Shown piece by piece: positions 1 through 62,721 of a stretch of DNA of 64,000 nucleotides. The stretch is from an uncultured Hyperthermus sp. (lineage in GTDB: Archaea; Thermoproteota; Thermoprotei_A; Sulfolobales; Pyrodictiaceae): positions 8,496 through 72,495 of the forward strand of contig CAZCGO010000004.1 in NCBI GenBank assembly GCA_964498685.1, given 5' to 3'. Each line of letters begins with the position of its first letter. Position 1 is the first letter of the stretch. The notes under the pieces are model-generated. The model was not told the origin of the DNA. It made no database searches and saw only the letters and a list, made by a program, of their open reading frames with translations. The position numbers and the translations under genes were made by a program.

Positions 1-2052
1 ACTGGTCCCTTTTTGCACTGTTAGTGTCAAGTTAATGTTGAGGGTGTCGTTGTAGATACGTATCTTCAGCGGAGCCTGGGGGGCGCCGCCGGTATACGTG
101 TCGACGAGCCGTAGCTCCACATTGAGGATTCTAAGATCCACCTTAAAGGCTGTGGCTGCTAGCAGCGTGGAGCCTGTTATGTTGCTTCTCTCTACGGGTA
201 CGTGTATGCGGTCCAGCGGCGTTATTGTGATGTTGTAGGTGAGGACCGGTATAACCCCTATCTCGGCGATGCCGTTACTGCCGGTTCGTGTCTCGTTTAG
301 CACAAGTATCCTGGAGCCGTTTATATCAATGAAAGCCTTGTACGATATGTTGAACCTCTTGAGGGGGCGCCCTATTTCATCTACAACACGTATCTTTGCT
401 TCTGTTAGGCGGTAGGGTGCGAGGCTCTGGAGGTATCCTTGGTGAACTGATGACGCGATAGCTGCTACTGCTGCTATACCACGGTTGGAGGTCGCTAATA
501 TTAAGTCTCCTTTCCGGAAGACGAACGAGGATGCATGGTACCCTGTCTTTATGTAGGGCAGGCCTTCTCGATATGTATAGACGTGTACATTGCCGACTAC
601 AGGGTTTATGTAGACTATTGCCAGGTTGCCGTTAGCGGACCCTACGGCTATAGAGTAGTAGTTAGAGTTAGGTGAGCCGGTTCTCCCTATGCTGGCTGCT
701 GTTGGCTTCGAGTCTATACTTGTACTCCATAGGAGCTGGTAGGCGCCGTTGGAGCGGCTTGCTACCAGTACCTCCCCGTTGCTAAGCGTGATTAGGATGA
801 GTTTCCCGTCGGCGGATACCTCTGCGAGCACGGGCTCGGCTCCTATGTAGTATGTGCGTATGTTCTCCGGTATGGGGTTCAGGGTTGCCTCGTTCACGGG
901 TATTATTTGGAGTGTGAGTCCCTGTTTTGTTGGAACCGAGGCTACTATGTATAGCGTATTGTTCTGCTCGAATACTAGCAGTATGTTGAGACTAGTTGTC
1001 GTTATGTTCAGGTTTATCGGCGTAAACGTAGGCGTGAGGGGGTTTCTGCCCGGCTCTACTAGGAAAAGGCGGTAGGGCTTCTGCTCGGAGGGGCAGAGCG
1101 TCGGCAGTGTGTTGTTACGTATAACCAGCGGGTTGCGGAGGATGAAGTAGTCGGTTCTCACCTTTATGACGTCGTTGGGAGTTATTGTGAAGCTGTAGCA
1201 GCCTCTCTTGGCCTGCACGTAGAGGACTAGTTGTTTAAAGCCGGCAGGTGCGGGGGCGGTGAAGCTGCCCGTAGCTGTGGTAGTCGCTGCACCCACCAGT
1301 GCGCCCAGTGTTAAGTCGACCACGTACACAGTGGCGTTCTGGAGCGGCCTGAGTGTAGCGTTGGCGCCGCTTGTAAACACCATGCCTGCTAGTGTCGCGC
1401 CCCCTGTAACGTTTACAGCTTTACTCTCGGCTATCATAACTGCCTTCCTGCCTACGTCGATGCCGCTTGGTGTTAGCGTGTGGACAGGTACAAGGCTGAG
1501 GGGGTTTATGTTCTCTCGACGTGTGGGCAGGAGGTCGCCTACTCGCAGCCTAGCCTCGTACCAGCCCAGCTTTGAGGGGCTGAAGGCATAGAGCGTGTTA
1601 CCTTTAGCCTCCTTGCTCAAGACGAGGAACGTTGTGTTTACGAACGCTGAGGCAACTGGTGTACCCGAGATAGCGTACTCGTGCACTGAGCCGTCTGTCA
1701 GCTTAAGTAGCTCTACCTGTGATGTGGGCAGGACGACGCCAATGTAGTGGGGGCTAATGTAAGAGTCTATGGCTGCTGTTTGGGGTCTCGCAGCGTACTG
1801 GGCGAGGGGGCGGGCACTGATTCTCGGAAGGGGGGCTGGGCTGGTGAGGTTAAGGGCCAGTAGCCGTGCCCTACCCCCGTCCACCGTCACAGCGTAGATG
1901 GCTTTACTAGTGTTCCAGAGGAATGCGACGCTGCTATTTGTCAAGTACTCTGCCGTGAAGGGTGGCTGCTCTGCGCGCGCTGCTGCGGCAGTCAGTGCTG
2001 AGGCTAGGAGCACCGCTAGGGCTAGAAGCGTTGTGAGGCTTCTCCGGTTCAT
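1..2052 (-). CDS. large secreted / cell-surface protein, partial (C-terminus lies beyond window start)
   Basis: The minus-strand frame is open from ATG (2050-2052) to position 1. No complete minus ORF is listed here, which fits one edge-truncated ORF. My translation starts MNRRSLTTLLALAVLLASALTAAAARAEQPP, a Sec-type signal peptide with an AxA site. The body is rich in N-x-S/T sequons and short beta-strand-like repeats. No family recognised. Confidence 0.7.
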   Translation of the reverse strand, partial: MNRRSLTTLLALAVLLASALTAAAARAEQPPFTAEYLTNSSVAFLWNTSKAIYAVTVDGGRARLLALNLTSPAPLPRISARPLAQYAARPQTAAIDSYISPHYIGVVLPTSQVELLKLTDGSVHEYAISGTPVASAFVNTTFLVLSKEAKGNTLYAFSPSKLGWYEARLRVGDLLPTRRENINPLSLVPVHTLTPSGIDVGRKAVMIAESKAVNVTGGATLAGMVFTSGANATLRPLQNATVYVVDLTLGALVGAATTTATGSFTAPAPAGFKQLVLYVQAKRGCYSFTITPNDVIKVRTDYFILRNPLVIRNNTLPTLCPSEQKPYRLFLVEPGRNPLTPTFTPINLNITTTSLNILLVFEQNNTLYIVASVPTKQGLTLQIIPVNEATLNPIPENIRTYYIGAEPVLAEVSADGKLILITLSNGEVLVASRSNGAYQLLWSTSIDSKPTAASIGRTGSPNSNYYSIAVGSANGNLAIVYINPVVGNVHVYTYREGLPYIKTGYHASSFVFRKGDLILATSNRGIAAVAAIASSVHQGYLQSLAPYRLTEAKIRVVDEIGRPLKRFNISYKAFIDINGSRILVLNETRTGSNGIAEIGVIPVLTYNITITPLDRIHVPVERSNITGSTLLAATAFKVDLRILNVELRLVDTYTGGAPQAPLKIRIYNDTLNINLTLTVQKGTS

Positions 2053-2247: not shown

Positions 2248-3945
2248 ATGCCCGCAATTCGTCTCAGGTTGAAGCTCCGTAGGGGTAAGGGTAGCGGAGA
2301 GGCTGAGGCGGAGGAGGTACAGGCGACGGACAGCGGCGAGGAGAAGGCTGCAGCGAAGACTGCCGAGCCGGTAGGCACGGTGCCCGGCTTCACCGCGGTG
2401 AGCGCAGCCAAGCTCCTCAACACCAGAGACTACGACGAGGTAGAGAGCTACCCGCTAGAGGAGCCCTGGGTCTACGCGCGTATACTGCGCCATAAGCGTA
2501 CCAGCGAGTACGTCTACTATGTCTATGAGATCCCGCTTACACCTAAGGAGAGGCAGCTCTATACGCAGATAATGGATGCCCTCTACTGGGAGATACAGCC
2601 GCCACCGGGCGACGTGGACACTATAACCTACTTCTATCGCGAAGCGAGACGCATTGTGCGCACCTTCCAGATACGCCTAGGCCGTACGCCGGGCATCTCG
2701 TGGAGGAAGATACTGTACTATGTGACGCGTGACGCAGTGGGCTTCGGCCCAATAGACCCCTTGATGAAGGACCCGGAGATCGAGGACATATCGTGCAACG
2801 GCGTCAGGCGTCCCGTCTACGTCTGGCACCGCAGATACGAGTACATAAAGACCAACATAGTGTTCGACCGGGAGGAGGACCTAGACAACCTTGTTGTTAA
2901 GCTTGCACACATGGGTGGCAAGCACATCTCGGTTGCGTTCCCAGTGGTTGACGCGATACTGCCAGGCGGCCACCGCTTGGCCGCCACTTACCGTAAGGAG
3001 GTTACGACTAGCGGCAGCACGTTCACAATACGTAAGTTCCGCGAGGACCCGCTCACAATAGTAGACATGGTTATGGGTAACACGTTGAGCCCGGAGGTCG
3101 CCGCGTACTACTGGGTCCTAATGGAGCACAAGAGGCCTGGCATGGTTATGGGTGTCACCGGGTCCGGTAAGACCACGACAATGAACGCCCTGTTGACGCT
3201 GCTTAAGCCCTCTGTCAAGGTGGTTTCGATAGAGGATACGCCGGAGCTGAAGCTCCCTCTCGAGAACTGGGTCCAGCTCATACCGCGTATGAGCTACGGC
3301 TTCGGCTCCGAGGGGCGCAACGAGATAACACTTTACGATCTGATAAGGATAAGCCTGCGATACCGTCCCGACATAATAGTGGTCGGCGAGGTCCGTGGCG
3401 AGGAGGCATATGTACTGTTCCAAGCAATAGCGACCGGCCATGGTGGCATGACGACGCTGCACGCTGAGAACATTGACGCGGCGGCTAAGAGGCTGACCAG
3501 CCCACCTATGAACATACCGCGGGGCTACATACCTTTGATGAACTTCGCGCTGCTCATACGTCGAGTCGAGATAGTGGACAGGGAGACCAAGCGCTCGAGA
3601 ATAGCGCGCCGCATAACCTATACGTGGGAGATAAGAGACTTCGGCGAGTACGTCCCGGTTCACAAGTGGAACGCCTATACTGATGAGCATGAAACCTTCT
3701 TCGATAAGAGCTTCCTCCTGCGCCATATAATGGATCTTGTCGGCTGGTCTGAGGAGGAGATGCAGCGTGAGATAAGCCGCCGCTCGACGGTCATACGCTG
3801 GCTTGCTGCTAAGAAGATGAGAGGCTACCATGACGTGGCGAGGGTTGTCCGCGAGTACTATCAGAACCCGGAGAGGGTCTACAACCGCGCAGTAGGGGAG
3901 CTAAGCGAAGTAGGTGGGGCGAGCGAAGGGGTTTCCATCATCTAG
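2248..3945 (+). CDS. type II/IV secretion-superfamily ATPase (FlaI/ArlI / pilus-assembly ATPase family)
   Basis: 565 aa. Walker A GVTGSGKTTTMNALL, Walker B/Asp box DIIVVGEVRGEEA, His box ATGHGGMTTLHA. Charged low-complexity N-terminal ~55 aa. Confidence 0.9.
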   Translation: MPAIRLRLKLRRGKGSGEAEAEEVQATDSGEEKAAAKTAEPVGTVPGFTAVSAAKLLNTRDYDEVESYPLEEPWVYARILRHKRTSEYVYYVYEIPLTPKERQLYTQIMDALYWEIQPPPGDVDTITYFYREARRIVRTFQIRLGRTPGISWRKILYYVTRDAVGFGPIDPLMKDPEIEDISCNGVRRPVYVWHRRYEYIKTNIVFDREEDLDNLVVKLAHMGGKHISVAFPVVDAILPGGHRLAATYRKEVTTSGSTFTIRKFREDPLTIVDMVMGNTLSPEVAAYYWVLMEHKRPGMVMGVTGSGKTTTMNALLTLLKPSVKVVSIEDTPELKLPLENWVQLIPRMSYGFGSEGRNEITLYDLIRISLRYRPDIIVVGEVRGEEAYVLFQAIATGHGGMTTLHAENIDAAAKRLTSPPMNIPRGYIPLMNFALLIRRVEIVDRETKRSRIARRITYTWEIRDFGEYVPVHKWNAYTDEHETFFDKSFLLRHIMDLVGWSEEEMQREISRRSTVIRWLAAKKMRGYHDVARVVREYYQNPERVYNRAVGELSEVGGASEGVSII

Positions 3946-5821
3946 CTCCTCAGGAAGCCGCGGCTTCTCGGGAACGGAGGTGGCTGTGTTGGCGAGTGCA
4001 CGCGGCGAAGCTCTCCGGCAGGGGACCAGCGTAATAGACGCTATGGCGCTCGCGGTCTTCGGCTCGATAGCGGAGAAGCTGTCGGCGTCCTTTAAGCTGC
4101 ACGAGTCGCTGCGCCGCGCGGGGCTCAACATACACCCCCGCCTCTACATGGCGAGGGTCCTCTTCTACGTCTTCATGTCGGTGCTCGTGCTAGCCAGCAT
4201 AGACTTCTTCGTCTTCATATTTGTAGGCAATCTTATTGTGAAAATAGTCTTACTATTGGCAACCCTAATGACGCCCCCTATAATACTCGCATGGGGCCTC
4301 TACTATCCTGAGGCTAAGGCGTCTGAAAGAGCAATGAAGACGGATCTGGAGTTCCCGTTCTTCGCCGCGTACATGACGGCCATGGCTTATGGCGGTGTGA
4401 GCCCGGAGAAGCTCATAGAGAGGCTCACCCAGATAAGGGTCTTCAAGGCTCTGCGGGAGGAAGCGCTGCGTGTGCTCCGCGACGTCAAGATTTTCGGCCA
4501 GAATATTCTCTCCGCACTTGAGAGAAACGCGCTCTGGCACCCATCGAGGCTGTACCGGGACTACATGCTGGGCTACTTGACAACCATACGGACGGGTGGC
4601 GACGTTATACATTACCTGGAGATAAGGACACAGGAGGTATTCCAGTCTAGGATGGAGGACTTGAAGAACCGCGCAGAGAGGGTTGGTTTCATAGTAGAGG
4701 CCTATGCAGCTGTAGCGGTGCTGGGCACACTGTCACTCTACATATTCTTCATCATCAGCGGCCTCATCTCGAGCGGCGGCGGAATGGGAGGCACCATGGG
4801 TATAATACTGTACAGCTTCGTCCTGCTTCCAATGCTAGTAATGGTAATCATAATGATGCTCAACAGCCTGCTCCCAAGCCAGGAGAACATAATGGAGCCC
4901 TACGCGTACCTCTTTATAAGCGGCCCCGCAGCGCTACTAGTAGCGCTGGCCGGGATAGCGCTCAGCGGCGGCCTCACGCCACGAGTAACGGGCAACGGCA
5001 TAGACACGGGGCATATACGCAGCATCATCATGGTGCTAGGGCTCTCCTTTATAGTTCTAAGCCTTGGGCCAACCATGGTCTACATGAAGAAGGTGAGGAG
5101 GGAGCGGGCGGTCTCAAGGAGCCTCGCCAACTTCTTCCGAGACCTCTCAGAGGTTAGGAGGACAGGCCTGAGCCCCGAGAAGAGCATAATAATGCTCTCT
5201 GAGCGCGACTACGGCCCCTTGTCGCCCATAATCAAGAGAATAGCCGGCGCCCTCTCTATAGGCCTTCACGTGGAGAAGGCCGTGAGGCAGGCGATACGGG
5301 GCTACCACAACTGGGTGCTCCGCGTCACAATGAGATTCCTCGTAGACGCCATGGAGGTTGGCGGCGGCAACCCTCATACACTTGACTCCCTGGCACGCTA
5401 CATCTCGTCGCTCGTCGAGATAAACGACCAGCTCAGGAAGCGCCTACGAGCCTACATAATAATGCCATACTTCGGCGCGATAATGGTTGCTGTTACGAGC
5501 ATCCTGACCCTGACGATGCTTGTCAGCGCCGTCGCCCAGGCCGGCCTTGTCGGGGGAGGCGGCGGCCTAGGCGCAGCCGGCGCCGTGGGTGGCCTGAAGG
5601 TGAATATATCGCCGCAGAACATAGCTAACCTCCTGCTTATCGCGTCGGCGGCCTCGGTGTTCAACGCGTGGCTTAGCGGCCTGGTTGCTGGTAAGATACA
5701 GGATCAGAGCCTCGCCGCGGGCTTCCTGCATGCAGCGATACTTACCGGCATAACAGTGGCCGTGCTTGTGATGCTGCTCAGCGGCACCGGCGGCCTCCTG
5801 GCGGCAAAGACAGCCCACTAG
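3914..5821 (+). CDS. FlaJ/ArlJ/TadC-like polytopic membrane platform protein
   Basis: 635 aa with many hydrophobic helices in two blocks separated by soluble segments. GTG start overlaps the ATPase gene by 32 nt, as in ATPase-platform pairs of archaeal type IV filament loci. The start could be further downstream. Confidence 0.8.
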   Translation: MGRAKGFPSSSSSGSRGFSGTEVAVLASARGEALRQGTSVIDAMALAVFGSIAEKLSASFKLHESLRRAGLNIHPRLYMARVLFYVFMSVLVLASIDFFVFIFVGNLIVKIVLLLATLMTPPIILAWGLYYPEAKASERAMKTDLEFPFFAAYMTAMAYGGVSPEKLIERLTQIRVFKALREEALRVLRDVKIFGQNILSALERNALWHPSRLYRDYMLGYLTTIRTGGDVIHYLEIRTQEVFQSRMEDLKNRAERVGFIVEAYAAVAVLGTLSLYIFFIISGLISSGGGMGGTMGIILYSFVLLPMLVMVIIMMLNSLLPSQENIMEPYAYLFISGPAALLVALAGIALSGGLTPRVTGNGIDTGHIRSIIMVLGLSFIVLSLGPTMVYMKKVRRERAVSRSLANFFRDLSEVRRTGLSPEKSIIMLSERDYGPLSPIIKRIAGALSIGLHVEKAVRQAIRGYHNWVLRVTMRFLVDAMEVGGGNPHTLDSLARYISSLVEINDQLRKRLRAYIIMPYFGAIMVAVTSILTLTMLVSAVAQAGLVGGGGGLGAAGAVGGLKVNISPQNIANLLLIASAASVFNAWLSGLVAGKIQDQSLAAGFLHAAILTGITVAVLVMLLSGTGGLLAAKTAH

Positions 5822-6663
5822 CCTGAGTGTTGTTGCTCTTTGTCTCCGCTGCGGGGCGCGAAGTAGTCGAGGAGGCTCCGCGTCTTCTCGTCGCTCTTTA
5901 TTTCGCCTCTCTCGATGGCTTTCTGGTATATCCTGGCCACGTCTACCTGCCGGTACTCTAGGCCTAGCGATTCTAGCAGCTTCTTGGCTTCCCTGGATAT
6001 GCTGGGGGCTACCAGTATCCCCCTTACCGGTGCCGCCGGGTTCTCCTCCCGCAGCTTCTCCACGTAGCGGTGTAGCTGTCTAACAGCCTCCCGTGTCGCG
6101 GTCACCCGTTTCACCTCGATAACCACGTAGCGGCCCTCACGGTCTCTGGCCACGATGTCCGCGTAGCCGGTGCCTATGGGTCGCTCTTTTCTTATAACGT
6201 GGAGCCCCTCCTCTATCTCATCGGGGTTTGCCGCGAGGTAGTCGCGCAGCTCGGCCTCGTCAAGGTACTCTATGAACTCCGCGTTGTCACGCAGGCCCTC
6301 GACAACCAGCACAGCGTAGACATCGTGGAACAGTATTTCGAGCACCTCCCTGGGCCTGCCTCTAACGCTTCGTAGTATCAGCGTGTCCCCCTGCTGCTCC
6401 GCCGTTAGTGCCTGGCTGTCCGGCTGCCAGTTGACGGGGGAGTAGCCGGAGGGCCGGTGGACGAGAACAGCGCCATCCGGCTTCACCACTACCATGCGGT
6501 CTCCCGGCCCTATCCTGCTCGCCCCTCTGCCACGGTAGTTTACGCTGCAGTTACCGAAGACCACTATGTAGCTGTGCCTGCTTATAGCGTCCGTTAGTAT
6601 TGTCGCCGCGCGGCGTATATCCATGTTCGACGCGAAAACTATGCCTGGACGCGTCGCCGCCAT
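5818..6663 (-). CDS. nucS: endonuclease NucS / EndoMS
   Basis: Shows a RecB-like nuclease core: GYADIVARDREGRYVVIEVKR...REAVRQLHRY, with N-terminal domain FGNCSVNYRGRGAS. Trimmed from the longest ORF (to 7011) to ATG 6661-6663 (MAATRPGIVF...). The upstream extension is low-complexity and overlaps priL. Confidence 0.85.
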   Translation of the reverse strand: MAATRPGIVFASNMDIRRAATILTDAISRHSYIVVFGNCSVNYRGRGASRIGPGDRMVVVKPDGAVLVHRPSGYSPVNWQPDSQALTAEQQGDTLILRSVRGRPREVLEILFHDVYAVLVVEGLRDNAEFIEYLDEAELRDYLAANPDEIEEGLHVIRKERPIGTGYADIVARDREGRYVVIEVKRVTATREAVRQLHRYVEKLREENPAAPVRGILVAPSISREAKKLLESLGLEYRQVDVARIYQKAIERGEIKSDEKTRSLLDYFAPRSGDKEQQHSG

Positions 6664-6848
6664 GCCGTCTTCTCCGGTCTCAGCCTCGTAGCGCCTTACC
6701 GGTAGGGGTTTAGGCTCGGGTAGCACCGAGGCCCATAGCTTATAGCCGGCAGAGAAGGCAGGCAGCCTAAATGTTACGGCTGCGGCCCTCCTGCCCTCCC
6801 GCGCTAGCAGCGGACGAAGGGAGGGTAGTGGCGGAAAAGGGTGCCTCC

Positions 6849-8012
6849 ATGTTGCTTGCCGGCTATCTAGCCGAGGTGGATGCACGGCTTTTCCCATACT
6901 TCGTTGACCCTGACCGTGTAGCGCGTAGCCGTTACGGCGTCCCCGCGCTCGAGGTGCTTTCGAGGAACAAGGGGCTGCAGGAACAGGGGTTTGAGCGTCT
7001 CCGTCTCGCATTGCGCCGTGCGCGTGTCCCTAAGCCCCGTGAACGGGTGGAGGAGGAAGTACTGGGGTTCTACGCCGCCGCCCTGCTGGCCTACCACAGC
7101 GGTAACCGCTGGGCTGTCTCCCGTCTCGCCCTGGCCGAGGCTGAGAGGTCCTATGCTGCCCTGCTCGCTCTCCCCGACGAGGCCTTGGCGGCTGTGGCGC
7201 GGCTGGCCGGCATTGGTAGCATGTATTTCTCGCCGAGAGCCTATAGCGAGCCTATAGCGGTCAGTGGGTTGACTCCCCTGTACCGTGTCTACGGTTTCGT
7301 TGTCCGGTTTACGGATTACGTAACCTATGCGCGCCGCCTGCTTGGCGACGACAATTGGAAGCCGGTAAACCTGCCAGTCCGTGGGGGCCGCGTCTATCTC
7401 GACAAGCAGAGGGCCGCCCGTCTAGCTAAAGAGGCTATAGACGTCTACGTTGAGAGGAGGATAATCCAGCTGGGCTCGTCGCTCAGCGAGCTTCCGGCGC
7501 CTCTCGCAGAGCTGCTCGACAAAGTGCGCGAGGCGGCCGCGGAGGCGACACGGGCCCGTAGACATGTAGCCGGGTTGCCGCGTCTCCCTAAAGGCCTGGT
7601 AGTGGAGGAGGCCTTCCCGCCTTGTATTAGGGATATATATGAGCGTGCTCGCCGTGGCGAGCACCTGAGCCACCACGAGCGCTTCGCTATAGCAACCTTC
7701 CTCTTAAACATAGGCGCCGACGTTGACACTGTGGTCGATGTCTTCAGAAACATGCCGGACTTTAAAGAAAGAATAACGAGGTACCAGGTCGAACACCTAG
7801 CGGGTCTACGCGGCTCCGGGAAGAAATACAGCACCTATAGCTGCGAGAAGATGAAAACACTGGGCCTCTGCAGGGCCGACTGCGGCACGAAGAACCCAGT
7901 ACAGGCATACTATCGGAACCTACGGAGAAGAACGGATGCCCAGGGAGGCGGCAGCCCCGGCACCAAGGCTGCCGCGAAGGAGCAGCAGCCTCCACGCGGG
8001 AAAAGCATGTAA
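6849..8012 (+). CDS. priL: DNA primase large subunit PriL
   Basis: C-terminal Fe-S domain signature FPPCIRDIYERARRGEHLSHHERFAIATFLLNIG...YSCEKMKTLGLCRADCG. Trimmed to ATG 6849 (MLLAGYLAEV...). Confidence 0.85.
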   Translation: MLLAGYLAEVDARLFPYFVDPDRVARSRYGVPALEVLSRNKGLQEQGFERLRLALRRARVPKPRERVEEEVLGFYAAALLAYHSGNRWAVSRLALAEAERSYAALLALPDEALAAVARLAGIGSMYFSPRAYSEPIAVSGLTPLYRVYGFVVRFTDYVTYARRLLGDDNWKPVNLPVRGGRVYLDKQRAARLAKEAIDVYVERRIIQLGSSLSELPAPLAELLDKVREAAAEATRARRHVAGLPRLPKGLVVEEAFPPCIRDIYERARRGEHLSHHERFAIATFLLNIGADVDTVVDVFRNMPDFKERITRYQVEHLAGLRGSGKKYSTYSCEKMKTLGLCRADCGTKNPVQAYYRNLRRRTDAQGGGSPGTKAAAKEQQPPRGKSM

Positions 8013-19597: not shown

Positions 19598-19704
19598 TGG
19601 AGCCGCCGCCGGGATTTGAACCCGGGACCCCCGGCTCCCTCGGAACCCGCGGACACCACGGGTGGCTTACGAGGCCGGTGCTCTGCCGGCTGAGCTACGG
19701 CGGC
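19598..19704 (-). tRNA. tRNA-Thr (anticodon CGU) with a ~31-nt intron at 37/38, CCA encoded
   Basis: Reverse complement: GCCGCCG-TA-GCTC-AGCCGGCA-GAGC-A-CCGGC-CTCGTA[intron]A-GCCGG-GGGTC-CCGGG-TTCAAAT-CCCGG-CGGCGGC-T-CCA. All four stems pair. Confidence 0.9.
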
Positions 19705-32754: not shown

Positions 32755-32898
32755 GGGCCCGTAGCTCAGCTAGGCAGAGCGCCGGGCTCCAGACCAGCCG
32801 GTCCACACGGCCACTAGGCGCCGGGTCTGTCGATATACCTGTCTCGATGAGAGGGAGAGACCCGGAGGTCGGGGGTTCAAATCCCCCCGGGCCCACCA
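32755..32898 (+). tRNA. tRNA-Trp (CCA) with a ~67-nt intron (about 32793-32859), CCA end encoded
   Basis: GGGCCCG-TA-GCTC-AGCTAGGCA-GAGC-G-CCGGG-CTCCAG[intron]A-CCCGG-AGGTC-GGGGG-TTCAAAT-CCCCC-CGGGCCC-A-CCA. Intron GGGAG can pair with the anticodon-loop CUCC, as expected for a bulge-helix-bulge site. Confidence 0.9.
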
Positions 32899-57963: not shown

Positions 57964-58086
57964 ACATTAGGCGCCATGAGCGATGTGCACCCTTCTTCGG
58001 GATAAAAACACTAGACTCCAAGACGGGCGCCTAGGACAGTATACGACAAACGTCGAGGAAAGACTATACCAGGCAGGCAGATAGCC

Positions 58087-58788
58087 ATGAAGAACCGGAG
58101 GCCAAAACTACTCAGCATAGAAGCCTACGACACAGTAACAACGACAATGGACACCGAGCCCCCACTCCTACCCGGCGCGACAATAGCCAGGCAGCAAACC
58201 CGGGGAAGAGGAAGAACCGGCCCATGGCAAAGCTCCCCCGGAGGGGCATGGCTAACACTCCACACACCCCAGCCCCCGCCCCCAGGCCTACCCGTAGCAG
58301 TAGGCGGCTGCACGGCCACAAAACTAAACCAGCTACTAGGCCGACAAGCAGTAGCAGTAAAATGGCCAAACGACCTCATAGCCGCGCCATGCGGCCCAAA
58401 GCTCGGAGGAATACTCGTAGAGCACCGCGGCGCAGCCACCAGGATAGGGATAGGCATAAACGTCTACAACAACCCCCCGCCAGGCGCCACAAGCCTCAGC
58501 CAGCTAGGCTACAGGAAAGGACTAGCACAGGTACTACAGGCCGCCATAGAGGCAGCACTCGAAGCACTAGCCAACACAGCCACCTGCATAGAAGCCGCCA
58601 GGAGGCTAGACGCGCTCAAAACAGCAACAGTCGAGGTAGAAACACCAACAGGCACGCTAAGAGGAACCGCAGAAGGCATAGCCAGCGACGCAGCCCTAAC
58701 AATAAGAGACCCCCATGGCAGGCTACACAGGGTAACCTGCTGCCACGTGAAAACCTACCACTGCGTATTACCCAGCCCCAGGCGCTAA
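58087..58788 (+). CDS. birA: biotin--[acetyl-CoA-carboxylase] ligase (no N-terminal HTH domain)
   Basis: GRGRTGPWQSSPGGAWLTL (GRGRxGRxWxSPxG motif), VKWPNDL, KLGGILVE. 233 aa. Confidence 0.85.
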   Translation: MKNRRPKLLSIEAYDTVTTTMDTEPPLLPGATIARQQTRGRGRTGPWQSSPGGAWLTLHTPQPPPPGLPVAVGGCTATKLNQLLGRQAVAVKWPNDLIAAPCGPKLGGILVEHRGAATRIGIGINVYNNPPPGATSLSQLGYRKGLAQVLQAAIEAALEALANTATCIEAARRLDALKTATVEVETPTGTLRGTAEGIASDAALTIRDPHGRLHRVTCCHVKTYHCVLPSPRR

Positions 58789-58828
58789 CCACAACCCAGA
58801 GGAATACCAGCCACACGGGCCCCCAGCC

Positions 58829-59359
58829 ATGATACTCGCAGACCGAGACATAGCCTGGTACATGGAGAAAAACCTCCTACGCATCACCCCCCTCTCCCCC
58901 GACACCATAAGAGAGAACGGCATCGACCTACGCCTAGGCGACGAGTACTGCCGGTTCAACCAGGACGCGCCCGAACTCGACACCGCGGAACCCTTCGACA
59001 GGAGAACCTACTACCAGTGCAGCAAGGCGGGAAGAGAAGGCTACACCATAAAACCATACGAGCACCTACTCGCAACCACAATAGAGACAATATGCCTACC
59101 CGACGACCTCGTAGGCCTAGTCAACGTCAGGAGCACCTACGCCCGCCTAGGCCTCTACATACCACCCACGGTGATAGACGCCGGCTTCTGCGGACAGGTA
59201 ACAATAGAGATAATCGGCTCAGCCTACCCGATACGCCTCTACCCCGGCCAACGCTTCCTCCACGTAGTCCTCGTTAAAACCACGAGCCCGGTGGCAAAAC
59301 CCTACAACGGAAAATACCAGCACCAAAAAGGAGTAACACCGCCAAAGCCAGACAACTAG
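58829..59359 (+). CDS. dcd: dCTP deaminase
   Basis: MILADRDIAWYMEK...IDLRLG...VNVRSTYARLGL...IDAGFCGQVTIEI. Confidence 0.9.
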   Translation: MILADRDIAWYMEKNLLRITPLSPDTIRENGIDLRLGDEYCRFNQDAPELDTAEPFDRRTYYQCSKAGREGYTIKPYEHLLATTIETICLPDDLVGLVNVRSTYARLGLYIPPTVIDAGFCGQVTIEIIGSAYPIRLYPGQRFLHVVLVKTTSPVAKPYNGKYQHQKGVTPPKPDN

Positions 59360-59391
59360 ATTCAAAATATATTTTAATATTTAAAAATAAT

Positions 59392-60018
59392 CTAGGGAAG
59401 TGGTAGTATTGATACAACGTAGTAATTGTTGTTAATGCGGGTAGCTAATGCAACGCTATAAACATAGCCGGGTTGAACACCTTGGGCCTCAACTTTGAGA
59501 ACAGTGTAGCTCCCCGGCCTTAGAATACCAGCATCAAACAGTCTAATACTGCCAGCATTTCCCTTTAGTTCGCCAATGCCGTAGTAGCCGTCCTTAATAT
59601 AAACGTAGACATGTCTTGAATCAACACTGACGGAGGGCAACAAGTTCCACCCGTTATCGTACTCTAGAGGTGCCGCTGCAGAACTCATGTTATAGACCGT
59701 ATAGGTCAATGATGGCAGCAGTACTGGCAGGTTTTCGCTGTTGTACGTAAGTACGAAAACATAGAGCCTCGTAGCACTCGTACCGCTATTTATAACTACA
59801 GTTACTGCTTTGAAACCTCCTGTAGAATTCTCGAAGCCTTCAAGCGACATTGATAGAGCGGCTGCTATATTCGAGAGCGTGTTCATTATTTGCTGGTTAG
59901 CTCTTGCTTGAACTAATAAAGGAGTAAAATAGTACACCATTCCAAGCGCTAATACTATAGCTATCGAAACTATTATTACTGTTGACAAAAGCTCTGCCTG
60001 CGTCCTCATTTCTATCAC
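59392..60018 (-). CDS. putative type IV pilin-like protein (class III signal peptide candidate)
   Basis: 208 aa. MIEMRTQA/ELLSTVIIVSIAIVLALGMVYYF has a short charged leader plus a hydrophobic helix, followed by a beta-rich S/T/N/Y-rich domain. The gene is AT-rich. Confidence 0.6.
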   Translation of the reverse strand: MIEMRTQAELLSTVIIVSIAIVLALGMVYYFTPLLVQARANQQIMNTLSNIAAALSMSLEGFENSTGGFKAVTVVINSGTSATRLYVFVLTYNSENLPVLLPSLTYTVYNMSSAAAPLEYDNGWNLLPSVSVDSRHVYVYIKDGYYGIGELKGNAGSIRLFDAGILRPGSYTVLKVEAQGVQPGYVYSVALATRINNNYYVVSILPLP

Positions 60019-60019
60019 C

Positions 60020-62344
60020 TTAGCGATGTAGATACCACATACCTAGCCATTCTACTGCAAGTGTAAAGTCCATATCATTATGTTCATAGTCGAAGCTCCA
60101 GCCGTATGGATCGTTCACTACAAATGCGACATAGTAGTCATTTGGCTGGTTAGGTAGCAGCAGGAAGACACTATCAGTCACCCACTGCGTGTTAGGCGGC
60201 CACGTGTCCTCTATATTCATCAATTGCTGGTAAATATAGTCGCTCGTCATATATACAGTGCCGTTTGGCGATATAAGTTGGAATGACATTAAGTATTGCT
60301 TAGGATCGTCTACATCATTTACGTCGTCCGCCGCATTATCATGGAACTTGTAGCGTATTTGTATTGAAACTTGTGCTATCTGACTACCATTTATACCATA
60401 AGGTCCAATGAACTTAAGATAGACCTTATTTATTGTTTGCTCGAGACACCCTACCTTCAAGGAGTCGGTATCGTCGTCAAACGCAGTGTAAATATGAGTG
60501 CCTAGATCATCGTAACTATCGCGATAGCCCCAGTCAGTCCCCTCATCAATAAATATTATCTCGTTAAGCCCGTTACCGTCGGTGTCTGCTATTAACGTAA
60601 AGGGTTCTATACCACTAGTAGCACCGCTGACAAAGTTAAAGAAGGTTAAAGTCGCATCTCGCAGCTCGTAGTCAAGTATCGCATGTGCTATATTCCTATA
60701 TGTGCCGTCGCCACTGTAATAGTAGAAACCAAACGCCTTTGCACCCTCAAGGTTGCTGTTTGTTGCATCATTGTGTGTACTTAAGAAGGTTGTAACTCCT
60801 CTCATCTTTATCCTTACTGGTTTTGCGTAGTCCTCGCTGTCTCTGTACGTGTTTATATCCTTGTCATACTCGAGAGATGCGTTTATGTTAGCATTGTTAT
60901 CGCGGCCGAAGTAGCCGAGACTATCGTCTCCCTGAAAGTTTTTAATTGAAATATTTATGTTTAAGGCAGTTCCGTATTCTGGGTTTTCTATACCGTCAGG
61001 TCCTCCTAGCGCGATGCAATCGCTCATTTGCATGAGGAGCTTATCGTTGTTTTGTTCTATGTTAGCTATCGAAGAGAGTGGGCAGTATATGATAAAGGGT
61101 CCTCCTTCGTATCTATCGTGCCCCTGATAATAGGTTCCTGTTGGTATGTAAATGTAGGCTCCAAAGCCTTTGGTGTCGAATATTATTTTAGCTTCTCTGT
61201 TCTTTATCGAGATGTTTTCGGTGGAACCTTTCTTAAGACGGGCTACTTTTCCGTATGCGTTTTCAACCACTTCATATTCAAGGGCTGCCAGTTTAGGTGA
61301 TAATTCGGTGCTATTTATTTTTATTATTGCTTGGTCATCGTTGGGCCATACAAATACCGCAAACCACTCGGCGCCATCCCGTACGGCAACTATGGCTGGC
61401 TCGGAGCCGTTGTAAGGCGCATAGGTATACATGCCGATTAGCGCTGCGGATTTAAATGGTGGTGTGTAGGGGGCTCCCCCGCCGCCAATCACAAAGCTTC
61501 CTGCTATAGGCTCTAGGTTGTGGATGAATATCGCGTCAAAACTTGTTTGGTTAAGGTAGTCGGCGGGCTGGAAGCCTCCCTCATAGAGTTTTTCGTTAAC
61601 ATAGCACAGTGATTTGACCATGTTTTTCCAGAATATTGACGTATTTGTGGATGATGAGTTGGGGCTTGTGCCTATTACGATATTGGGGTTATTAGCTAGT
61701 TGCGCTAGATCGTTTATCCCGGTTAGATTGAAGTAATTTGTTTTTACTGAACCTGCTACTGCTGCATACTGTGTTTGGCCGCTGCTTGGTGGGGGTGGCG
61801 TTATCGGTTTTATGTATGCACCGCTCGAGAGTACTGCGCTTATGAGTTCGCCGTTTACCACGGTAATCTTAGCTTTACCATTAGGATGTAGTAGGAGCTT
61901 GGAGCCATCTACTACTGCATTGCTGATTGGTGTAACATATACCTGAGCTGTGCCTGCTGTACATGCGCTTGTCACGCAGAGTCCTGGCTTTACGAAATAA
62001 GTGTCACCATTACTATCTTTTACTGAGAATATAACAAAACTATGCTCCTTACTATCCTTATTAGTAACTAGGTACACCTTTTTCGTCAATGAGCTGAGCG
62101 TGTAATCAAGTGTTATATTAATTGGCGCGTTTGCCGACCGTATCTTCTGTACAATACTTTGAGCGAGCTGTATGTTAGACTGGGCTGATGCTAACAAGTT
62201 TATCAGCAAAGGCACAAGCGCGGTAAGTATAAATGTAAATACTATTAGGCCGGCTATAGTGTTCGAGATAGCGCGGCGTGGCCTCTTGATATTGGCGCTA
62301 TATGTATCTCCAGCTTCAGTAGGCCTTGATGGCATGGCATGCAC
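60020..62344 (-). CDS. large (774 aa) surface protein with type IV pilin-like N-terminus; possible adhesin
   Basis: ...NIKRPRRA/ISNTIAGLIVFTFILTALVPLL resembles the archaeal prepilin motif [KR][GA]/[ILV]S..I. It is followed by ~740 aa rich in N/S/T/Y/D/G. Contains an FG-GAP/EF-hand-like loop ADTDGNGLNEIIFIDEG. GTG 62344 or ATG 62335 start. The gene is AT-rich. Confidence 0.7.
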   Translation of the reverse strand: MHAMPSRPTEAGDTYSANIKRPRRAISNTIAGLIVFTFILTALVPLLINLLASAQSNIQLAQSIVQKIRSANAPINITLDYTLSSLTKKVYLVTNKDSKEHSFVIFSVKDSNGDTYFVKPGLCVTSACTAGTAQVYVTPISNAVVDGSKLLLHPNGKAKITVVNGELISAVLSSGAYIKPITPPPPSSGQTQYAAVAGSVKTNYFNLTGINDLAQLANNPNIVIGTSPNSSSTNTSIFWKNMVKSLCYVNEKLYEGGFQPADYLNQTSFDAIFIHNLEPIAGSFVIGGGGAPYTPPFKSAALIGMYTYAPYNGSEPAIVAVRDGAEWFAVFVWPNDDQAIIKINSTELSPKLAALEYEVVENAYGKVARLKKGSTENISIKNREAKIIFDTKGFGAYIYIPTGTYYQGHDRYEGGPFIIYCPLSSIANIEQNNDKLLMQMSDCIALGGPDGIENPEYGTALNINISIKNFQGDDSLGYFGRDNNANINASLEYDKDINTYRDSEDYAKPVRIKMRGVTTFLSTHNDATNSNLEGAKAFGFYYYSGDGTYRNIAHAILDYELRDATLTFFNFVSGATSGIEPFTLIADTDGNGLNEIIFIDEGTDWGYRDSYDDLGTHIYTAFDDDTDSLKVGCLEQTINKVYLKFIGPYGINGSQIAQVSIQIRYKFHDNAADDVNDVDDPKQYLMSFQLISPNGTVYMTSDYIYQQLMNIEDTWPPNTQWVTDSVFLLLPNQPNDYYVAFVVNDPYGWSFDYEHNDMDFTLAVEWLGMWYLHR

Positions 62345-62612
62345 CCATATTTAATTATCTGTCATACAATAGAGCAACGATACCCCCATCTAATTAACAT
62401 AGTCGGCGTGGCTGATAAAACAAATCTTTAAATAAGGCAAGTAGGGTATGCTTTATGGTAATCCTCCTTGCTTTCTTGCTTTCATTGTTGCCCGCCGTAG
62501 GATGAGGGGCGAGATAGAGGGTAGGAACGGCTGTTGGGGTAGTGCCGGATGTGATAGTGGATCTGGCGTGATTTTGCCGCAAATCCCGGCAAGTCCTATA
62601 GTTAGTATTCGA

Positions 62613-62721
62613 TGGTGGGGCCGCCGGGATTTGAACCCGGGACCACCGGCGCTCCGGCCCGTGGCCCCCGGCGCGGGGTGGGTCCCCAGGCCGGCATCCT
62701 GCCAAGCTAGACGACGGCCCC
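62613..62721 (-). tRNA. tRNA-Pro (GGG) with a ~32-nt anticodon-loop intron, CCA encoded
   Basis: Reverse complement: GGGGCCG-TC-GTCT-AGCTTGGCA-GGAT-G-CCGGC-CTGGGGA[intron CCCACCCCGCGCCGGGGGCCACGGGCCGGAGC]GCCGG-TGGTC-CCGGG-TTCAAAT-CCCGG-CGGCCCC-A-CCA. The D stem contains G:U pairs. Confidence 0.85.

Follow-up and report, generated by a model that had tools for sequence, protein, structure and literature searches.

Pyrodictiaceae cells live at temperatures close to 100 °C and produce unusual extracellular matrices, and we know of no type IV pilus (T4P) component of this family that has been characterised. Among the closest described systems are those of Desulfurococcales subclade 4A, whose loci contain three to four extra, untraceable components that were proposed to form a set of minor pilins (Makarova et al., 2016, PMC4858521). 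For subsystem 4A, a 2026 preprint describes accessory genes that follow the platform gene, together with specific pilins and a remotely PilY-like adhesin (10.64898/2026.04.22.720090). In P. delaneyi, FlaFind predicts 26 class III proteins, all still uncharacterised. Here, we analyse a 64,000-nucleotide stretch of an uncultured Hyperthermus sp., a Pyrodictiaceae archaeon of deep-sea vents (contig CAZCGO010000004.1, positions 8,496 to 72,495; hereafter the window) and, within it, two abutting genes that encode a 774-aa and a 208-aa protein (hereafter large and small). On the evidence below we favor the view that this pair is an operon for two type IV pilin-like proteins of a T4P system specific to Desulfurococcales/Pyrodictiaceae, and that it has been inherited vertically at an old locus rather than imported recently. 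This view is built on a pilin-homologous N-terminal module, a class III-like N-terminus found family-wide, the conserved pairing of the two genes, linkage to an assembly ATPase and platform in relatives, and synteny. Both families are unannotated and are found in Desulfurococcales/Pyrodictiaceae, and our literature search found no paper describing either. The assignment would thus place two 'hypothetical proteins', and about 105 clusters related to the large one, in a pilus system.

The large gene (60020–62344) and the small gene (59392–60018), which encodes its type IV pilin-like partner, both lie on the minus strand, separated by a single nucleotide, between dcd and a tRNA-Pro(GGG) gene. The list of open reading frames (ORFs) and the tRNA end at 62613 agree with the preliminary description of this arrangement, which had also recognized pilin-like N-termini in both proteins. 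The two sequences that it quoted are indeed present. With a slash at the cleavage site that we presume, they read KRPRRA/ISNTIAGLIVFTFILTALVPLL in the large protein and MR-T/QAELLSTVIIVSIAIVLALG in the small one. We applied a relaxed class III rule, defined as [KR][GAST] directly before the hydrophobic helix. This rule was passed by 83 of 90 full-length members of the large family and by all 15 of the small family; among 53 control ORFs of the window, only the two target genes passed. In the alignment of the large protein, the leader varies in both length and sequence, and conserved columns set in precisely with R-[A/G]-[I/L]-S-N-T-I-A-G-L-I-V-x-T-F. Across the full-length members of the large family, the median leader is 7 aa, position −1 is G in 71% and A in 23%, and position +2 is mostly S. 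The variable basic leader of the window protein spans aa 1–25 (62270–62344, minus strand) and ends at the presumed prepilin-peptidase site R-A/I-S. Other N-termini in the large superfamily include RKG/ISAAIAGVIVL, HKG/VSSIIGAIIAI, and RGQAEVIGALLAV. In the small family (n = 15), the stretch R-x-Q-A-E-φ-φ-S-T-x-I-I-V-S-φ-A is invariant and as a rule lies only two residues in from the start. These patterns support the assignment of class III-like, pilin-type N-termini to both proteins.

A homologue search in a word-indexed collection of 5.8 billion proteins returned only eight relatives of the 774-aa protein, all aligning over their full length at 38–44% identity and all carried by Pyrodictiaceae metagenome-assembled genomes (MAGs) from hydrothermal vents. 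With an exhaustive hidden Markov model search, the large family grew to 105 cluster representatives. Most of these are proteins of 500–680 aa from Desulfurococcales MAGs, all named 'hypothetical', and they have the C-terminal ~200–260 residues in common. When searched against the PDB, a profile of 54 superfamily sequences (A5) matched 8fk7, a type IV pilus subunit of P. calidifontis, over its whole length (E = 4.6e-5; E = 2.5e-4 with profile A6), with the match covering the N-terminal ~145 residues of the superfamily profile. Further PDB matches were to the soluble domain of S. acidocaldarius FlaG (E = 1.7e-3) and to archaellin (E = 0.025), and distant family members gave weak N-terminal matches to UpsB (1.3e-6), UpsA, and Pilin_N. 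Only broad profiles reached pilins; the narrow family profiles A1 and A2 matched no PDB sequence. In Pfam and NCBIfam, nothing rose above threshold for the two window proteins, for 15 small-family members, or for 54 large-family members. The small family could be tied to the large one by hhalign, which aligned its profile to the large-family pilin module with 93.9% probability (E = 1.6e-7).

Structure predictions are consistent with these matches. The AF2 model of the small protein (pLDDT 90.6) consists of a helix at residues 2–54 running into a β-sandwich at 55–206, and Foldseek placed the archaeal pilin 8fk7 among its matches (E = 2e-3). For the large protein, a helix at 27–69 was modeled at low confidence and a β-sandwich at 75–172 with pLDDT 80–90. 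Of the features that the preliminary description proposed to look for, a helix plus β-sandwich was thus found in both proteins; no β-propeller or FG-GAP module was recognized in the large model, whose C-terminus lies below pLDDT 50, too low for a reading of its fold. Taken together, profiles and models support the reading of both window proteins as predicted pilin-fold, pilin-signal proteins, for the small one by way of the large family. Separately, we considered the cannula proteins CanA/CanX and the TasA-like AbpX as homologues and rejected them, as neither a PDB sequence match nor a fold match was found; in the literature these are Sec-dependent donor-strand polymers.

A T4P system needs machinery, and the preliminary description had pointed to a single candidate ATPase and platform pair at 2248–5821. 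Pfam matches bear this out. The gene at 2248–3945 (plus strand) encodes a T2SSE-family secretion ATPase with a PilB3_C tail (T2SSE, 8.4e-32; PilB3_C, 1.2e-7), and the gene at 3914–5821 (plus strand) encodes a T2SSF/TadC-type membrane platform protein (T2SSF, 1.6e-20). Orthologues of both are linked to the pair in two distant lineages (locus handles begin with L). In L014, dcd, the carboxylase genes, a T2SSE ATPase with PilB3_C, a T2SSF platform gene, the large gene, and the small gene follow one another on one strand; in L031, the ATPase and platform genes stand at the head of a cluster that also has a short canonical pilin, one small-type gene, and three paralogues of the large type. Over its full length, the window ATPase is 60% identical to that of L014 and 51% to that of L031, and the platform protein 39% and 37%, respectively. 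Because these orthologues share an operon with the pair in L014 and a cluster with it in L031, we regard 2248–5821 as probably encoding the cognate machinery, which gives a name to a likely ATPase and platform despite a distance of 54 kb. Association with the ATPase and platform is also probable in L023, where a platform fragment lies upstream of the pair. Homologues thus do occur in pilus loci, as the preliminary description had suggested checking: besides the L014 operon and the L031 cluster, the pair adjoins Pilin_N-type pilins in L016 and L021. Pairing of a large and a small gene was seen at all loci examined across the superfamily, including L012–L022, L030, and L031.

Some of these loci have additional features. 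Three large-type paralogues stand in tandem beside one small-type gene at L016:9385–16232 and at L031:9423–14745, and the L016 tandem region also carries a gene for a 152-aa pilin-like protein and a Pilin_N pilin. A TnpB/Cas12f1-like_TNB gene (L031:6173–7417, minus strand) lies inside the L031 T4P cluster, between the end of the ATPase/platform genes and the small and large genes.

The large protein is a mosaic of conserved and variable parts. Its pilin module (aa 26–180; 61805–62269, minus strand), delimited by the AF2 model and profile matches, comprises an invariant hydrophobic helix, an amphipathic helix, and the β-sandwich. In the alignment, this is followed by a Pro-rich linker after aa 180, a conserved stretch at aa 190–330, and a hypervariable, indel-rich middle at aa 331–510 (60815–61354, minus strand) with a column identity of 0.22–0.33; among close relatives, this middle has the highest dN (0.26–0.33) and the highest dS. 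The conserved C-terminal domain (aa 571–774; 60023–60634, minus strand), which ends in EWLGMWYLHR, has a column identity of 0.66–0.77. It is the signature of the superfamily and the sole part shared with the distant members of 500–680 aa. All six cysteines of the large protein are invariant, and it has 12 N-x-S/T sequons compared to 7.9 ± 2.6 expected; we read both as features of an extracellular protein.

The C-terminal domain contains a calcium-loop motif, ADTDGNGLNEIIFIDEG (aa 586–602; 60539–60589, minus strand), in which a DxDxNGxxE loop is followed by a hydrophobic strand. Its core is D587-T-D-G-N-G-L-N-E595-IIF, of which the superfamily conserves the D, D, N, G, E, and F positions: D587, D589, G590, N591, E595, and F598 are invariant in A1, and the equivalent D, D, E, and F in A6. 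Each protein has one such motif. FG-GAP repeats and PilY1 have nine-residue calcium loops that fit the same D-x-D-x-N-G-x-x-E pattern, and from this resemblance we infer that the motif could bind calcium. The preliminary description had read an FG-GAP/EF-hand-like loop here. The motif is present and conserved; the family models gave no PilY1 match among 54 large-family members and only sub-threshold FG-GAP_3 matches in 2 of the 54 (best E = 0.013). The result is a newly delimited, unannotated C-terminal domain with a conserved calcium-loop motif, and with it a candidate archaeal pilus adhesin.

We propose the following model. Both precursors would enter the membrane through their N-terminal hydrophobic helix, and a PibD-type prepilin peptidase would trim the short basic leader, at R-A/I-S in the large protein and probably at R-T/Q-A-E in the small one. 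The T2SSE ATPase and T2SSF platform encoded at 2248–5821 would then pull the helices out of the membrane into a helix-bundled filament. The ~590 extra residues of the large protein would find room only at the tip or base of such a filament and not in its wall. Because an extension of this size could not fit the wall, the large protein is most likely a tip adhesin or a priming minor pilin. This makes plausible the earlier suggestion of a tip adhesin or non-canonical subunit, in the form of a pilin module with a bulky extension. We would expect the variable middle to be exposed and the conserved C-terminal domain to serve in binding or in holding the structure. The small protein would be the constant partner, either as an adjoining minor pilin or as the main subunit. 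Leader cleavage, filament assembly, tip location, calcium binding, and adhesion are all predictions of this model. A bolder version of the model, which we put forward as a long shot, is that the two proteins together make up a complex, not described before, that caps or primes a Desulfurococcales pilus. In it, a pilin module would be fused to a head bearing the calcium loop, and the hypervariable middle of this head would be swapped between lineages by allele replacement in situ. If true, hyperthermophilic archaea would have a variable locus like those for surface antigens, and the head might be a receptor or docking site for viruses, for neighboring cells, or for the calcium-dependent cannulae of Pyrodictiaceae.

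Several results weigh against the T4P assignment. Our own implementation of a strict FlaFind-type regex ([KRDE][GA][ALIFQMVED][ILMVTAS]x3 followed by a hydrophobic stretch) was passed by neither window protein, by 36 of 90 members of the large superfamily (40%), and by none of the 15 small-family members. At residue 6, the presumed −1 position (R-T/Q-A-E), the small protein carries T, where all of its relatives have G, A, or S, and it might be processed poorly or differently. A motif scan of the window for a prepilin peptidase gave no match; in a published supplementary table, Pyrolobus and Hyperthermus have one such enzyme apiece (Makarova et al., 2016, PMC4858521). Pfam Pilin_N, TIGR02537, and the other curated pilin models did not match either window protein, and the small-family profile alone found nothing significant in the PDB. 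The small model's Foldseek matches were mostly generic β-sandwiches (CBM3, SdrG), which came out closer than pilins. The large model was poor overall (pLDDT 54, with the C-terminus unmodeled and below 50), and Foldseek, with a model of this quality, found no credible match. Finally, at most loci, the window included, the pair is not beside an ATPase and platform. Pyrodictiaceae have three to four paralogous clade-4 ATPases (Makarova et al., 2016, PMC4858521), and it is by orthology that we assign one of them to the pair.

Some of these points speak for the main alternative, in which both proteins are uncleaved, N-terminally anchored envelope proteins that use the archaellin/pilin fold without polymerizing into a pilus. 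They could be struts of the wide pseudo-periplasm, like ArlF/ArlG or associated with the S-layer, where they might serve to anchor the pilus machinery or some other surface structure or to lead it through the S-layer. The FlaG match of the large-family profile noted above fits this idea, as do the failure of the strict regex, the T at −1 of the small protein, and the missing adjacent ATPase at most loci. In addition, the preprint notes a likeness to S-layer proteins for some accessory proteins encoded at type IV filament loci, and that these may prime the wall (10.64898/2026.04.22.720090). However, the best PDB match is a true filament subunit, 8fk7, aligned over its full length, and invariant helix residues with a [KR]-[G/A] boundary beneath a variable leader are typical of processed pilins rather than plain anchors. 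Moreover, the L014 pair is operonic with an ATPase and platform at a locus without archaellum genes. We therefore consider uncleaved anchors unlikely and retain the T4P assignment.

Crenarchaeota have large glycoproteins with class III signals, such as the sugar-binding proteins of Sulfolobus, and the sequons and invariant cysteines of the window proteins could be taken to mean that they are substrate-binding proteins of the bindosome type, or a main S-layer pair, which merely use a pilin-type signal. We judge this very improbable. The pair adjoins no ABC-transporter genes, either in the window or at the syntenic loci L001–L009; Pfam, NCBIfam, and PDB searches gave no match to a solute-binding or S-layer domain, and the proteins keep a pilin β-sandwich module and the tight coupling to a small pilin-like partner.

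The locus also stands out in base composition, and here the question is one of history. GC content falls to 0.39–0.47 over ~59300–62500, compared to 0.58–0.73 in the flanks, which confirms the abrupt AT-rich switch reported in the preliminary description. GC content at third codon positions (GC3) is 0.426 and 0.449 for the two genes, ~3 standard deviations under the window mean and the two lowest values among 53 long ORFs of the window (mean 0.712, standard deviation 0.096), indicating that the anomaly affects the choice among synonymous codons and not amino-acid content alone. The low GC of the pair is thus real. It is also not confined to this genome: at orthologous loci, the GC3 of the large gene lies under that of the flanks (0.58 vs. 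~0.72, 0.65 vs. 0.73–0.90, 0.57 vs. 0.79–0.89, and 0.40 vs. 0.47–0.63), and in L011-type relatives the pair has a GC3 of 0.36–0.40. The drop is strongest in this window, and the small gene of the relatives shows a weak effect. Composition is heterogeneous across the window as a whole (GC 0.43–0.73, with 0.73 at 51–53 kb and 0.71 at 56–57 kb; GC3 of accC, 0.90), making GC alone a poor guide to foreign DNA here.

The preliminary description had noted that a similar composition in other surface-protein genes would argue against a foreign origin. This argument holds weakly: a glycoprotein gene at 1–2052 has a GC3 of 0.62, under average but far above 0.43, indicating that surface-protein status alone does not account for the latter value. 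The gene at 1–2052 (minus strand) is a partial ORF of at least 684 aa that runs past the window start and is divergent from the T4P ATPase gene; its product, with a Sec-type signal (MNRRSLTTLLALAVLLASALTAAAARA/EQ), 17 N-x-S/T sequons, and a weak CarboxypepD_reg match, may be an S-layer or adhesin glycoprotein. A different compositional feature is seen at 58000–59100 (birA and dcd, plus strand), where the coding strand strongly favors A over T (AT skew ~+0.5), a bias that the orthologous regions of L001 and L004 show as well.

Two observations speak for a foreign island recently integrated at the 3' side of tRNA-Pro, in line with the horizontal acquisition suggested in the preliminary description: GC content drops abruptly with a tRNA gene at the border, and both genes are compositional outliers. 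This suggestion did not survive comparison with relatives, which we limited to Pyrodictiaceae contigs with enough flanking sequence. The order tRNA-large-small-dcd recurs in all such relatives except L011, with protein identities of 32–44%. The broader gene order is also kept: two cytochrome bd-like genes, an intron-bearing tRNA, the large gene, a small gene of ~205 aa, dcd, birA, and acetyl-CoA carboxylase genes. The pair is at the same site in every syntenic relative (L001–L010, L026, and L029), rather than present in some and absent from others, and the tRNA is at the equivalent position in L001 and L004. L011 differs downstream, where the pair is followed by ORFs of 123, 202, and 629 aa instead of dcd (L011:571–3575); by eye, these three look HEPN-like, PIN-like, and iorA-like. 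Among the relatives compared, we found no empty site in which tRNA-Pro directly abuts dcd. The interval 59360–62612 contains only the two genes, with no integrase or other mobile-element gene, and a search for an att-like direct repeat of the tRNA-Pro 3' end found none. A recent island is therefore extremely unlikely.

Compared with L001 and L004, the flanking proteins of the window (dcd, accC, and a cytochrome bd-like gene) are 64–83% identical, birA 45–59%, and the pair 40–48%. A conserved order combined with lower identity of the pair than of its flanks indicates fast-evolving orthologues at an old locus, the history included in our favored explanation. Among three close relatives, the flanking proteins are 86–97% identical, the large protein 72–78%, and the small protein 86–98%. 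The dS of the large gene among close relatives is 0.89–1.39 compared to 0.36–0.81 in the flanks, a two- to threefold excess, and in the L006/L007 comparison the divergence of the small gene follows the flanks and that of the large gene does not. Region-level dN/dS is 0.05–0.25 throughout, with no sign of positive selection at this level.

These values also bear on a second account of the locus history, which is compatible with the pilin assignment. The locus may be ancestral, with its alleles swapped in situ by homologous recombination with lower-GC Pyrodictiaceae alleles, in this genome and repeatedly in relatives, in a manner likened to the variable surface-antigen loci of bacteria. Such exchange may be the reason for the low GC. 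The GC3 of the pair (~3 standard deviations under the window mean), the low large-gene GC3 at every orthologous locus and in the L011-type pair, the raised dS of the large gene, the L006/L007 contrast, and the 40–48% identity of the pair beside 64–83% for its flanks would all fit it. However, no close low-GC donor allele was found, with the nearest relatives only 44–45% identical, and the dS excess fits imported or older alleles as well as weak codon constraint; weak constraint, or alignment noise in the hypervariable region, could raise dS. We thus consider in-situ replacement possible but somewhat less than an even bet. The locus also serves as a warning: a GC trough with sharp edges beside a tRNA gene need not be an inserted island, and can instead mark an old, syntenic surface-protein locus that evolves fast.

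Downstream of the pair, dcd (58829–59359, plus strand) is convergent with the small gene, and the AT-rich, 32-nt spacer between them (59360–59391; GC down to 0.385) reads as a putative bidirectional terminator. Upstream, an AT-rich spacer of 268 nt (62345–62612, minus strand; GC 0.41–0.49) separates the large gene from the tRNA and is a putative promoter or 5' region; in the ORF list it contains no ORF with homologues. The tRNA-Pro(GGG) gene (62613–62721, minus strand; Rfam RF00005) is upstream of the pair and co-oriented with it, has an intron of ~32 nt, and encodes its CCA. The Rfam match covers 62616–62721 (minus strand, 106 nt, 40.1 bits), and the encoded CCA extends the gene end to 62613; direct reading of the anticodon arm, CCGGC-CUGGGG, gives the anticodon GGG. 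ARAGORN reported no tRNA adjoining the large gene, and Rfam recovered one as intron-containing. Two more intron-containing tRNAs in the window, at 19601–19704 (minus strand) and 32755–32895 (plus strand), scored 56–57 bits with Rfam and were likewise missed by ARAGORN; such tRNAs point to an archaeal source for the window. After the platform gene, a NucS endonuclease (minus strand) and a primase large subunit (plus strand) occupy 5818–8012, and their listed ORFs overlap by ~240 nt, probably owing to over-extended start codons.

How does the pair compare with known systems? Bindosome-type glycoproteins are similarly large, carry pilin-type signals, and depend on a T4P-like ATPase and platform. 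Unlike them, the pair has neither an ABC-transporter context nor a solute-binding fold, and a complete pilin β-sandwich module follows the helix. The bacterial tip minor pilins and adhesins (GspK, TcpB/CofB, and PilY1 with its minor pilins) are alike by analogy only, in joining a pilin-type N-terminus or partner to a bulky C-terminal domain for the tip; PilY1 has a calcium loop of the DxDxDGxxD type. They differ in that no sequence homology to them is detectable and that the archaeal machinery has no secretin.

Closer parallels lie in the archaea. The extra components of subclade/subsystem 4A, described as uncharacterised proteins, are found in the same taxa and in the same place, downstream of the platform gene, as the pair in L014 and L031. 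The minimal system of the preprint has two platform genes, in contrast to the one here, and beside its 'PilY-like' adhesin, 54 members of the large family gave no PilY1 signal in Pfam. Judged by description, the pair probably belongs to the 4A accessory set, for which arCOG11238 and arCOG06117 are named. With respect to the archaeal T4P pilins and archaellin fold (8fk7; Sulfolobus UpsA/UpsB), the large protein is set apart by being four to six times longer, with its unannotated extension of ~590 aa, and the pair by matching no curated pilin model, by residues +1 to +3 (I-S-N and Q-A-E) outside the strict FlaFind pattern, and by lying 54 kb from the machinery in this genome. What the pair has in common with these pilins is a short basic leader, the [KR]-[G/A] boundary, the α1 helix, and the β-sandwich head, together with profile-level homology for the large superfamily (E = 4.6e-5), weak UpsA/UpsB matches in distant members, and T2SSE/T2SSF linkage in some lineages.

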